From: Anthoceros angustus
Taxonomy: Eukaryota; Plantae; Anthocerotophyta
NCBI GenBank assembly: GCA_010909165.1
Contig: VJWM01000310.1
Span: 25,158 to 89,157 of the forward strand
Length of the DNA: 64,000 nucleotides
Reading direction: 5' to 3'
Each line of letters opens with the position of its first letter. The first letter of the stretch is position 1. This document shows, in pieces, positions 12,765 through 51,108 of the stretch. The position numbers were made by a program, and so were the translations under genes. The notes under the pieces are model-generated. The model did not search any database and had not been told where the DNA came from. It worked only from the letters and a program-made list of their open reading frames with translations.

Positions 12765-13301
12765 TCATCCATGCCTCGTCTCATCATCACTAACCACATC
12801 ATTTATGTGCGGAAAATGCTCGATTATGTGTGTGAGAATCACATTCCTCAGCGCATTTATTTCAGAAATAATGTCAATCCCATTTATTGTTGCAATCATT
12901 TCATTCCGCATTTCATTGAGGATTTCATCTATTCTTGTGCAGATTGTAAGAAGCTCATCTATGTTTATCTCATCATCATGAAGATTCTGATCAATATCAA
13001 CTTCAAGTATTAATCCTTTGCAATTGGGAAATGTGCATCTTGCATGATGATTATGCAACCATGGAGCAAGACATCGCTTGTGAAAGGAATGAGAACATGC
13101 GTCCACTTGTGTGATTTCTTGATGTTTTTTAATTTCATCTTGACAAATGGTGCAATCCTTGACTTCGTCGCCATTATACATCCTTGTTCTCACCTTGAAT
13201 GTTCTTCTAATTGAACTGTTATGCTCCATCAGGATTTCCTTAAATGAATTCTTCGCTTCCTTGGAATAAGGAATTATGTGGTATTCTGGATGCAGTGACA
13301 T
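12765..13301 (-). CDS. Intact intronless RING-H2 protein (putative E3 ubiquitin ligase), 178 aa
   Basis: Uninterrupted ORF containing CTIC-x15-CSHSFHKRCLAPWLHNHHARCTFPNC followed by a helical acidic tail. It shares EIT...C.H..HK.C..PWLH with array ORFs a and b. Confidence 0.9.
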   Translation of the reverse strand: MSLHPEYHIIPYSKEAKNSFKEILMEHNSSIRRTFKVRTRMYNGDEVKDCTICQDEIKKHQEITQVDACSHSFHKRCLAPWLHNHHARCTFPNCKGLILEVDIDQNLHDDEINIDELLTICTRIDEILNEMRNEMIATINGIDIISEINALRNVILTHIIEHFPHINDVVSDDETRHG

Positions 13302-13560
13302 GACATATATTCGATGACAAACATATATAGTTGGGGGTCAGGTAACTAGGTATTATCAGGTAAAACAAGTTTTTTCTCGATAACAAAATTGATAATAATT
13401 ACAAATTGGTCTTACTATTTTAAATATTAGATAAAAATTATAAGATCTAATATATATGGTATCTATGTATGGAGTTGTGTTCACTGCAGCTTCTTAAAGA
13501 TAGGTAGATCTATAGAGTTTAGGGTTTATAGGTAGATAGAGGTTCGCTAGGCGAATAGGG

Positions 13561-13648
13561 GGGTAGGCGGGTAGGCGGGTAGGCGGGTAGGCGGATGGGC
13601 GGATGGGCGGATGGGCGGATGGGCGGATGGGCGGATGGGCGGATGGGC
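13561..13648 (+). repeat. 8-bp G-rich tandem repeat (gggtaggc x4 + ggatgggc x7), G-quadruplex-competent
   Basis: Eleven 8-bp units read directly; GGG tracts are spaced by 5 nt. Confidence 0.95.
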
Positions 13649-14667
13649 CGAGAGGTAAATAGGAGATGGGAAGTCCAAGCATAAACTCGTTACGCAGCCA
13701 GCCAAGCACGTCCAGTAGTTCGCAAATACGTAGGTAGGTAGGTAGATCATGAAATGCGACAGTCTCATAATCATGAAAGGATTGTACGATTGAGACCGCA
13801 TTGAGGCAGACCACGTTACGGGCGATAGGAGGTCAAATGTCCATGGCTCACTTCAGGACTCTATGGAGGGCAAGGTCACCAAAAGCGTGGGTAGGCACCG
13901 CATATTCCTCTTCACCCGGTCACGGTGGCCTCGGATTTATGGGCATTGCGACAAGCCATGCGAGGTTAAAAACAAGCGGATGAGGGAGATGGGATGCTTG
14001 TGTTTCCCTTAGAGTCGGCAAAGAGATGCTTTGCGGATGTCTCAACACCTCTCCACTCGTCATTGGGATACCTTTTCAAATAGGCGAGAAGTGGAGAAGC
14101 AAATCGAACCTCAACCAACCAACCAAGAGATAGCTTGTTGGAACAAGAGCCATAGCTCCATACAAGAACCGAAATTAGGGGTACAATTAAAAAGGCGCTT
14201 TCTTATAGAAAGGCTGTTGTGGCCAAAGTCTTGTTTCCTTATCGCGTTCGGCATGACATTGCAAACCCAACCGCACTTCAAGAGTAAACAAGGTCTCCTA
14301 AGAGTGGGAGCGGCTCCTCGTCTGGTTTTGAGGGTGAAATTTGGGACACAGAAACAAAAAGCTTGAATTTCATAATTTGCAGAATTTTTAAAAATTGCAT
14401 GATAAAGATGTGACTTTAAGAATGAAACCATGCATTTCAATGGTTTTAAGGTAATAAGACCTTCACATGGTCTACACTCCTCCAAGTTCTCATGAATTTA
14501 CGCCAATTCTTTAAGATGATACATGCAATTTATAGGCCGCACAAAATGGATATTAAAAAGGTCCACAAAAATGAGTTTAAGGGTCCTACGAGAAAAAAAA
14601 AGCGGCACATTGTCATACTTGTATGACCCCAGACATCCGGTGAATGTGCGAATGGTATGAATCCATT

Positions 14668-47989: not shown

Positions 47990-48028
47990 ACAGTGATTTC
48001 CTAGTTCTGTCAAGGTGGTTTGTTTTTA

Positions 48029-49261
48029 TTAGGATGTGTGCTCCTCTTTTGGGGTGTTGGCAAACAGGGTTGAGTCTATGTGGCTTCTCCACCAGACATC
48101 CGGGGCACAGTTGTAACACGTATCATGTTTTTGTAAGGTTTCACGCTTGTCTGGTGTATGGCACGTGTACCGTTTTGAGCGCGTCGGCTGTCGGTTCGAC
48201 AATTGTATGTAGGATGGGAAGGAATGGGGAGACGGGCGTAAACCTCCTCCGGCCGGGTACTCTCTTGCCCTCACTCTTCTTTTTATTTTCCATCACGCTC
48301 CAAGAGCTGCGCTTCGTGGTTGGCGATCCGCGCTCGAGTGCCGGGGTGAGCGGGCGTGGTGGCCTTGGGTGGCGGAGTGGTGCGTGTTGGTTGAGGAGGC
48401 CATTTGCAGCGCTATCGGAGATTGGAGCAAAAAGGCTTCGCTGGTGGTGCAGGGGGCCGCTTCGCTGGTGCTCAGCCGCTCTGGTGGTGCAGCAGTGCTG
48501 CCTACTAACCTGGACTTGTGGCACCCGCCTTTGTGCGGGCTAGTTCTCCACGATTGCGATGAGAACGAGGCGGCTAATCAACGGGTGACATCTCGACATC
48601 GCTCAGAGGGCTAGGAGGAAGACCTCCTCGGTGGGGCCTCGCGGTCCAACACGCGAGGCAATGTCGCTGTTGGATCCGGGCTTCTGGCTTTCCTCACCCC
48701 AAGCCTGTTGTTGGTTCGAAGGGAGGTGGGTGTCGGGGTGGCCTTAAGGGAGCCGCTAGGGTGTGGACCCCTTCCCGAGAGGGATGAGGGTGGAAAGCCA
48801 AGGGATATAACCCGTGACCTCTCACTTGCCGAGGAGGAGGTGAAATGAAGGGAGCTGATTCGACCATATTTGGCGGTGAAGCCGGAGATGCGGGAGTTGT
48901 CTACTGGAGGAGTTGGATGTCAAGACGCACGTATGGGCCGAGAAGGAGGCGAGGAGCTAGCCCAGTGATGGTCGCAGGCATGAAGGCCTTGGCGGGTGGA
49001 GGGAGCGGCCGTGAAGTGAGCCCGAGTGAGGATGGCAAGTATGGTTTCGCCTTAGATTACCGCCATGGATGTTTCATCTGCTGTTGCTTGTGGTTGTGTT
49101 CTCTTGCGGATATTTGATGGTGTTGATGCAGCTAAATGGCACATCGGTTTGTTTGCCGCTAGTGTTGGTTTCTTGTTCGGTGGTGCATTCAGCGTAGAGA
49201 GTGTACTTGAGACTAGCCTAGGAATGAGCACTATTGGTTTTGGTTTCTCGCGGATGCTCAC
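48029..49261 (-). CDS. Putative S/P/T-rich ORF ending in a Cys/His-rich segment (frameshifted)
   Basis: Minus-strand pieces from 49052-49261 down to 48029-48274 (KRYTCHTPDKRETLQKHDTCYNCAP..H), convergent with the transposase. Confidence 0.3.
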
Positions 49262-50085
49262 TCAATCGGAATAGTGCTTTTGTTGAATCCTTTACACACA
49301 CTTTGGTCTTTGACGTACATCGTTTAAAGCATGGTCAATATGGGCATTGTGTGGGGTGTGCTCACCGGACATCCGGGTTTTTGTGTTTTCTTCGCCTTGT
49401 CCCGCTTCGACTTTCTGTTCATGACTTGGCGGTGTTTAAGCTATCCCTTTTATAAGTAAATCAGTCTGGCTCCTATCGGTCTAGTAATGTGTTGGTTTTA
49501 AGCTCGCCTTGTGTCGTGTATTTGGATGGCAAATGCGTAGAAGGCGATTAGTTAGTTTACATTTGGCTAAATTATACATCTAATTCACCACTTGGATACC
49601 AAATGACATGTGTTGATGCATTTGTTGTATTATGTATAGTGACATGTAGAGACATATTGAACTTGAACTTTCACGTTGCCACATATTTAAAGACACCGGG
49701 GATGTCGGACATGAGGGGCATGTGAAGGAAATGAAATGTATCCACAACATTAGTCTCGTCGGACTTTGACCCTTAGTACATATATTCAAAAGCGTCACAA
49801 ACTTGGCGATTTTGAAAGACTAACCGATTTTGGAAAAGTGTCCTTGAAAGTGCTAAACGCGGGTATTTTCAAACTTGATCCAAAGGACCATTATTTGCAA
49901 GATCAAATGGCATGATAAAGCTAGAAATGGTGTTATGAAAACCACAGGTTATCTGCGATGTGTGTTTTTGACCCTTGTGTGGAAAAACCCACGAAATCAC
50001 GATTTGATTTGATTTCAAATGTAAATTTGGTCATTTACCTCTGTCTCTAAAAAGAGGGGTGTGTCTCCGGTCTTAGGAGACCTTG

Positions 50086-51108
50086 TTAGTACATTGCTAG
50101 TGCTACGTCCTCAATCGATTGCAGTGCACTCGCTGGCCAAAAGTGCATTGCATGCCGTCGACTACTATCTTTAACCGCCCATAGCGTGTACACAAGGCCC
50201 AAAGTTGAAAGGTTTAAATAGAGCGGAACAATAGCAAAGTGAGCTAAAGCACATTCAAGACCATATATACCGTTGATGGGGCTCTGCAAATAGGACACGA
50301 GAGGATCCCGGCTCATGCATCAGCCTTGGATGCACAAGTTGCAAAACATAAAATGCAAGCAAGGAAGGACGAGCGGTGTTCCTAGGCTTCACATAGCGGA
50401 TCAAGCACGCATTTTTCTCGCCTGCCTCCGGTTCGGCATAGCGTGTTTCCACTCCAGGTTCCCAAGCCGCATCTTCCGTAGTCTTCTTGTCAAGCTGCAA
50501 GTTTAGATAATGCATTGTCTAGCTCATCGTCATTGTCCTTGATTCGCTCACTTTGTATAGCCGTTTGCAAGTTGGTATTCTCCTCCTCCAACCTTTGCAC
50601 TCTGCTGGTAAGTCTCCGCACGCTCTCCTCCTCCCGCTCAATGCACTCCCCGTTGTACGCCTTCTCCGCTCTTCTGGATTGCTTTGAGCTTTCTAGGCTA
50701 CTTCTTCCTTGATGTGGCACTCCCTTTGTCTCTTTCTTTTCGTAACACTGCTTCCATATAGTTTCTTGAGATCTAAATACAATTTCTTTTTGCTCCAAGG
50801 TATTCATCAACCATCGTTGGACGGGGCCAAGTCCGCAGCCGTTCTGCGTTCACGCCCCTATCGCTCGAATGATTTGGAGCGAGTCCTTGCACCTCCTCAA
50901 TGTGAACTCTTGATCAACGAGCCCATCAGCAACCGCTTATGCCTCTCGGCATGTGGCAATTCACGATCTCCCTCTTCCTCTTTTGGTTCGCCATATCCGC
51001 CAACGACAACGTTTTCACGCTCCTCGAGCCTCTCTTCCAGCTCTTAGTGCAACACCTTCAAGTCCATAACTAGCCGGCCTCAGGATCCCTACACTTCCTC
51101 TTTGCCAT
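50086..51108 (-). CDS. Coiled-coil + C-terminal RING-HC (C3HC4) protein, putative E3 ligase, intronless (frameshifted)
   Basis: Coiled coil EREEESVRRLTSRVQRLEEENTNLQTAI (50490-50810). Then, across indels, ACLI(C)YVKPRNT(L)VLPCLHFMFCNLCI...SCPICRAPINGI (CLI at 50407-50399; CPICR at 50297-50283). Confidence 0.72.

Follow-up and report, generated by a model that had tools for sequence, protein, structure and literature searches.

Sola transposons are described as having a DDD transposase, a 4-bp target-site duplication (TSD) and terminal inverted repeats (TIRs) of 11-1124 bp, and are known from the moss Physcomitrella (PMC10741241); a preference for AWWT targets is given as a hallmark of Sola1 (PMC3845634). 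In Sola1-1_Ec32 of Ectocarpus, a 21.5-kb element, a transcribed gene on the opposite strand encodes a protein with ParB-like and N4/N6 methyltransferase (MTase) domains. Binding and modification of the element that encodes it was proposed as the role of this accessory protein, and the same paper cites similar proteins from transposons of green and red algae (PMC12477816). In Arabidopsis, the motifs bound by VANC21 lie in the introns of the element that encodes it and in its intergenic and terminal non-coding sequence (PMC5735166). Here we describe a window of 64,000 nucleotides (C164:25158-89157 of a 119-Mb assembly in 289 contigs) which holds a multi-copy cut-and-paste element carrying a transposase and an MTase-like gene.

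Like Sola1-1_Ec32 as described, this is a Sola-like transposon of more than 10 kb with a ParB-like plus MTase gene opposite the transposase (PMC12477816). The ParB-MTase Sola design is already published, and is extended here to a plant-like genome. Sola1-1_Ec32 comes from a brown alga and is described with two intact Sola-1 copies, while the element described here measures 11.5 kb and is present in at least 23 copies. It further differs from the published account in its plant-like host, its three subfamilies and its related families with at least 111 MTase matches, and it combines a D-x-P-R catalytic motif IV with a dispersed palindrome; the available text of the Ectocarpus paper mentions neither a palindrome nor the catalytic motif (PMC12477816). 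No land-plant case of such an element was found in the literature by title and abstract, a coverage outside which most subscription papers and Repbase fall.

The element spans window positions 14287-50087 and comes to about 11.5 kb after removal of nested insertions (18713-43298). Its ends and coding regions are the following.

14283-14286, + strand: left TSD, AGTA, which is a single AGTA at an empty paralogous site on contig C45 near 1002085
14287-14303, + strand: left TIR, 5'-AACAAGGTCTCCTAAGA, whose start is identical in all close copies
15733-18161, − strand: conserved part of the gene for a ParB-like plus beta-class amino-MTase-fold protein; frames broken by indels, start approximate
43356-43988 (L014:246-614), − strand: open reading frame 2 (ORF2), a conserved coding block of about 150 residues with a ratio of nonsynonymous to synonymous substitution rates (dN/dS) of 0.13
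44707-47805, + strand: Sola-like DDD transposase gene (DUF7869) with a long N-terminal region, from Pfam and homologs; start approximate
46071-46267, + strand: likely transposase intron, whose upstream exon boundary and GT are shared by the three subfamilies; acceptor approximate
50071-50087, − strand: right TIR
50088-50091, + strand: right TSD, AGTA, matching the left one

Six close copies (on C8, C17, C33, C4, C13 and C178) share both ends with the element in the window, their match breaking off within 14269-14287 at the left end and within 50087-50088 at the right. The TIR of the window's subfamily is 17 bp long and begins 5'-AACAAGG; those of the other two subfamilies are somewhat longer, and the TIR core has 72 matches genome-wide against 5 for a reversed control. 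Among loci with both ends in the fetched stretch, an exact 4-bp TSD was present in 17 of 22 end pairs, and these 17 TSDs were all different. The TSD was off by one homopolymer base at C17, C14 and C159, carried one substitution at C39 and was absent from a single pair, at C25. At the empty site on C45, the two flanks of the element are joined across one AGTA, and about 55 further bases are missing to the left of it. Because the TIRs are accompanied by variable 4-bp duplications, cut-and-paste mobility by the DDD transposase is indicated.

The methylase-like gene and the DUF7869 transposase occur together at no fewer than 23 places (same contig, same strand), mostly about 5 kb apart. DNA searches gave 45 matches for the transposase region (40 of 113 candidates scored) and 59 for the MTase region (40 of 85 scored). 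The copies fall into three subfamilies, with coding blocks about 72-78% alike, and measure 11.1-13.9 kb where large inserts are absent. Three derivatives of only 2.6-4.1 kb retain the two TIRs, flanked by exact duplications, and lack the transposase and accessory genes. A preliminary description of this DNA had proposed a single cut-and-paste element of 38 kb that included flanking RING genes and in which neither TIRs nor a TSD had been found. The single element holds, given the shared ends, TIRs, TSDs and empty site; its extent does not, as it measures 11.5 kb with the RING genes outside, and both 17-bp TIRs and the AGTA duplication are present. The co-occurrence of the two genes, the common ends of aligned copies and an empty site, all of which that description had proposed to look for, were each found. 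The 4-bp TSD, the TIR length and the element size agree with the ranges reported for the Sola superfamily, which as described there carries no such accessory gene (PMC10741241). Just two of the 17 exact TSDs (AATT and ATTT) fit AWWT, and since the Sola1 preference (PMC3845634) is thus not followed, we file the element as Sola-like rather than as Sola1.

All genes were read from several natural copies and from subfamily consensuses because the assembly is noisy: copies match their own consensus at 82-94%, with gap openings about as many as mismatches, and the longest stop-free frame in the window is at most 329 codons. The transposase on the + strand, as called previously, was recovered by Pfam DUF7869 (E 5.8e-12 in the window, E 3e-35 in copy L010). 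Its catalytic piece is 52-65% identical to its best homologs, the nearest named transposases being those of the liverwort Riccia and the fern Adiantum, and three candidate aspartates lie in DGMDQ, QMDN and GHTHDQID contexts. Comparison with the published Sola1 profile was made by eye, over positions 1-30 of 124. The sequence after the intron GT differs among subfamilies, and a gap of about 65 codons relative to homologs falls at the intron; the genes had been taken to be all intronless, a view contradicted by this likely intron, and indel noise breaks every frame. A TIR-like word is also present in the intron on the − strand (about 46163-46175) in all close copies.

The previously reported "unknown ORF" is correct as to the conserved block at 43356-43988, while the stretch at about 44700-45900 is best read as the N-terminal part of the transposase on the + strand. 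ORF2 has no Pfam or PDB match, and its frame in subfamily C runs on into the linker; it may be a separate gene or an N-terminal domain of the ParB-MTase protein. Its structure model has low confidence (pLDDT 46.5; best fold match Z 4.8), and its nearest Atlas clusters are small unnamed phage proteins (score 0.95), which we treat as a lead only. A by-eye resemblance of ORF2 to GNAT acetyltransferases was considered and rejected on the lack of Pfam or PDB matches together with the same pLDDT and Z values. The preliminary description also listed a Cys-rich ORF and a zinc finger following the MTase. Neither has a Pfam match in the window. No alignment between subfamilies was obtained for the left-arm stretch after the MTase, and on the right only part of the stretch can be aligned, between subfamilies A and B. 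Because the left arm after the MTase and most of the right arm do not align across all three subfamilies, both features are unsupported.

The accessory gene lies inside the TIRs on the strand opposite the transposase, with the two genes head-to-head. A ParB-like domain is N-terminal to the N4/N6 MTase domain, which matches Pfam N6_N4_Mtase in copy L077 (E 1.4e-10). In the window, the ParB motif lies near 17545, motif IV (D-L-P-R) near 16441 and motif I near 15980; motif IV precedes motif I, which is the beta-class order. The ParB fold was observed on a homolog, P0054, linked to the element protein by phmmer and tblastn and modeled at full length from a 25-row alignment that included four pieces of the element (pLDDT 73). 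Residues 520-767 of the model resemble beta-class amino-MTases of the CcrM/RsrI/PvuII fold (CcrM Z 21.9, root mean square deviation 3.5, 217 residues aligned; rotifer N4CMT structure Z 18.7). Residues 100-240 resemble ParB/Srx proteins (PadC Z 9.2, root mean square deviation 3.1, 99 aligned), with further matches to KorB (Z 8.4) and Pnob8 ParB (Z 8.3). The earlier call of a ParB-MTase on the − strand is thus borne out by the Pfam match, by motifs I and IV and by the ParB/Srx fold of P0054. Between subfamilies, dN/dS was 0.05-0.06 for the ParB/middle part, 0.11-0.22 for the catalytic part, 0.12-0.14 for the transposase and 0.13 for ORF2, as measured on in-frame natural pieces of 82-177 codons each with windows below 40% identity dropped.

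The nearest named ParB-MTases are from Chara and Adiantum. Together with the transposase homologs from Riccia and Adiantum, these point to a host that is probably a non-seed plant or a streptophyte alga. Chara braunii has many ParB-MTase paralogs (P0039-P0107) whose motif IV reads DFPY/DLPY or DFPC. A search with the N-terminal domain returned 62 proteins among 1.84 billion representatives, and N6_N4_Mtase was present in 4 of the 18 scanned. A PDB sequence search with alignment A2 gave 0 matches, and a metagenome scan with the MTase alignment gave 7 loci, six of which were 21-24-residue matches and were set aside, leaving one 2.5-kb contig; the scan thus added no genomic context from beyond this assembly. 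The nearest named Atlas clusters of P0054 are phage ParB_N plus N6_N4_Mtase proteins (score 0.86-0.87, again a lead only), and its BFVD fold matches include phage fusions of the same two domains. The domain order is that of the phage fusions found at ParB-terminase loci; the element protein differs from these in its longer helical middle, its eukaryotic transposon context and its altered motif IV (PMC4738411). A bacterial-type beta-class amino-MTase fold in a eukaryote is shared with MpDN4MT1 of Marchantia (bioRxiv 10.1101/2021.02.12.428880) and N4CMT of bdelloid rotifers (PMC8885841). These are domesticated host genes with (T)SPPY and demonstrated N4-methylcytosine (4mC) activity, and the available text of the two papers neither mentions ParB nor describes them as transposon-borne.

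The most repeated word of the element is a 16-bp quasi-palindrome, CACCGGAYRTCCGGTG. The three subfamily consensuses contain 8, 9 and 9 sites against 0.12 expected under a Markov model, nine natural copies contain 6-8 sites each, and the noisy copy in the window contains four.

14629-14640, unstranded: palindrome site in the left non-coding arm, core CCGGAYRTCCGG with one mismatch
46107-46118, unstranded: palindrome site in the transposase intron
48092-48103, unstranded: palindrome site in the right arm
49365-49376, unstranded: palindrome site in the right arm

The left arm has another site, of degenerate sequence, near 15358. Six of the eight subfamily-A sites are outside conserved coding blocks, in the arms, the spacer between the divergent genes and the intron, and all three short deletion derivatives retain 1-3 sites. 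The palindrome is absent from the rest of the window and from 130 kb of non-element loci; its 12-bp core occurs 255 times genome-wide against 31 for the control. The element contains no tandem array of the palindrome, and the sites are single and dispersed.

MTase genes of this kind extend beyond the family. Pfam N6_N4_Mtase has at least 111 matches in the assembly (150 of 158 candidates scored), most of them outside this element family, and DUF7869 has 668 candidates, of which 150 were scored. We examined the top 20 N6_N4_Mtase matches outside the family. A ParB or middle region was seen at 15 of these loci, and those with a clean frame have D-V-P-R as motif IV. Eight have a DUF7869 transposase within 10 kb against about 11% expected given the number of candidates (p about 9e-4), a comparison in which the 20 loci are not independent since two small families are among them; the other 12 have none within that distance. 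Other carriers or non-autonomous forms of the methylase gene may therefore exist. Several of the loci begin 5'-AACA. The search for TIRs and TSDs gave one convincing pair, at C49b with an AAAT duplication, and in the 20 kb covered at each remaining locus it gave no TIR or TSD, or low-complexity matches only.

On this comparative evidence, we place at roughly 55% the probability that the accessory protein binds the palindrome of the element via its ParB-linked region and keeps the element active. The ParB-linked helical region would recognize the 16-bp palindrome, the S-adenosylmethionine-binding domain would act on or hold DNA nearby, and the protein would keep the element transcribed or protected from silencing. 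This would resemble VANC of the Arabidopsis VANDAL elements, as a functional analogy only, in that a second protein is encoded by the element and a short motif is enriched in introns and non-coding sequence (PMC5735166). The analogy gains indirect support from the dispersed, element-enriched palindrome, but the catalytic motif of the putative binder is without its aromatic residue. VANC belongs to a Mutator-like element, no homology to it is expected, and its activity is demonstrated, whereas that of the present protein is predicted (PMC5735166). Several points weigh against binding to the palindrome in support of element activity. VANC targets are tandem and non-palindromic, while the sites here are single, dispersed palindromes (PMC5735166). 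Many genome-wide matches to the 12-bp core fall outside this family, consensus sites 4147 and 6106 may be coding so that their conservation is perhaps protein-driven, and 16 of the 20 other MTase loci have 0 palindrome sites. No clear family-specific replacement palindrome was found at those 20 loci, with only C22 clear and partly within repeated blocks. In addition, the fold was modeled on P0054 and not on the element's own protein, the filter of at least 40% identity biases dN/dS down, and the assembly is too noisy to call any element copy intact. Finally, the palindrome could be a transposase binding site.

This last point has a fuller form, in which the transposase is what binds the palindromes and the accessory protein, without any role in chromatin, serves transposition as a structural cofactor, for instance by bringing together ends that lie 11 kb apart. 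DNA spreading and bridging are known of ParB-type proteins, derivatives without both genes keep TIRs and palindromes, and a TIR-like word occurs in the transposase intron as well; set against this, the palindrome sites are spread over the whole element and not clustered at its ends, and we consider such a cofactor quite unlikely. A better placed alternative, possible if doubtful, is that the protein is a working amino-MTase that writes 4mC or N6-methyladenine at or near the palindrome, marking self and blocking host 5-methylcytosine (5mC) at CG/CCG. The single aromatic residue of motif IV would be expected to carry weight for catalysis in such enzymes. In all three subfamilies, motif IV is D-L-P-R-G and not (D/S/N)PP(Y/F/W), the Arg in place of the aromatic residue being encoded by three different codons (CGG, CGA and AGA); D-V-P-R-G is clean at 3 of the 20 other loci, with D-V-P-R at 2 more, and several Chara homologs have Cys at the aromatic position. 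Amino-MTases use DPPY, SPPY, NPPY or DPPW, and the double change of SPPY to APPA abolishes the activity of rotifer N4CMT (PMC8885841). The case for a working enzyme is that the protein retains motif I along with the QKP stretch and the aspartate of motif IV, that dN/dS of the catalytic region is 0.11-0.22, and that several homologs, among motifs of DFPY, DLPY, DAPY or DFPC, retain one of the first three. CpG observed/expected ratios of 0.85-0.91 in the element consensuses against 0.59-0.75 in two long terminal repeat (LTR) elements and an array also fit, in a comparison that is weak, being confounded by age, coding content and consensus versus copy. The MTase domain is maintained, but its catalytic activity is doubtful. 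Because D-L-P-R stands in place of DPPY, we favor, by a modest preference, a weak or non-catalytic binder over a working methylase. Also unlikely, and going beyond a palindrome binder that keeps the element active, would be a phage-like ParB-MTase that loads on a parS-like 16-bp palindrome and spreads along the element, with the D-x-P-R site writing or shielding a non-5mC mark, so that a young radiation of Sola-like transposons with more than 100 methylase-fold copies, in a land-plant-type genome, escapes silencing.

The sequences nested in and flanking the element are listed below.

12765-13337, − strand: RING-H2 gene lying to the left of the element and not part of it (Pfam zf-RING_2, E 1.3e-8)
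18713-43298, unstranded: nested insertions outside the element proper, namely an LTR element, several duplicated pieces and a repeat whose target of approximately 13 bp is duplicated
26167-43182, + strand: Ty3/gypsy-type LTR retroelement (RVT_1 match, reverse transcriptase at about 35084)
about 50150-51108, − strand: coiled-coil RING-HC gene lying to the right of the element and not part of it (C3HC4 pattern in relatives); ends approximate

Both RING genes were correctly recognized in the preliminary description, by the zf-RING_2 match for RING-H2 and, for RING-HC, by a C3HC4 pattern that can be read in the paralog on C45 and along an open frame at C56. That description made them cargo of a 38-kb element combining DNA methylation with ubiquitination. 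They do stand on either side of the element in the window, as they do at C55, a locus that shares the left flank and represents the same insertion site; the TIRs and TSD, however, lie inside them, and the empty site is without the element. Relatives of the two genes occur on C45, C24, C21, C28 and C56, and at C45:1016610-1020300 both stand side by side with no element between. By tblastn, the RING genes were found at no other fetched element locus except C55, with flanks of a few to about 15 kb searched. The RING genes are host sequence and the E3 ligases neighbors at this one insertion site, and we give almost no credence to a 38-kb element with such cargo. The "RING-encoding arrays" said to flank it do not encode a RING domain: of the RING-H2 gene, the approximately 4-kb units contain no more than the 3' tail (residues about 117-190), and the RING domain (residues 60-103) is outside them. 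The tandem array amplifies this tail and adjacent sequence, with units about 94% alike, at window positions 1-12986, 51699-54392 and 60239-64000 and also on C45 and C24. A chromodomain Ty3/gypsy LTR element (RVT_1, RNase H, integrase, Chromo) is inserted in the array at 54393-60240, and its open frames are longer than those found elsewhere in the window.

The 38-kb span is explained by later nested insertions and assembly duplication. A nested retroelement had been noted previously, and RVT_1 identifies it as Ty3/gypsy-type; its LTRs of about 5.1 kb (26167-31292 and 38085-43182) are 84% alike. Duplicated pieces at 20138-21207, 24031-26157 and 22270-24034, one pair of which is 100% identical over 1765 bp, are probably assembly artefacts. 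C55:822705-829496 is the window's site assembled again; as far as the insertion point, it is free of the duplicated MTase pieces, and this comparison suggests a local misassembly of C164. An unclassified repeat with an approximately 13-bp duplicated target lies inside the element at 18713-19236, 21207-22270 and 43183-43298, and at C55:828450-833738; related repeats occur at C4, C7 and C108, in some cases immediately next to further copies of the element.

The family is of interest for its candidate target site, for the change in its active site and for how large the radiation is. The self-binding and modifying role proposed for the Ectocarpus protein comes, in the available text, with neither a target site nor a test (PMC12477816), and this family supplies a candidate site. 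Its three diverged subfamilies, deletion derivatives and empty site make binding and activity directly testable, and the conserved D-x-P-R motif raises the question of whether such proteins write a mark or only bind. Should a ParB-MTase indeed load and spread on the palindrome, a ParB/parS-style self-recognition system would be working in plant chromatin. The 111 or more methylase domains of this genome may represent a reservoir for domesticated amino-methylases, such as the sperm 4mC enzymes of Marchantia.

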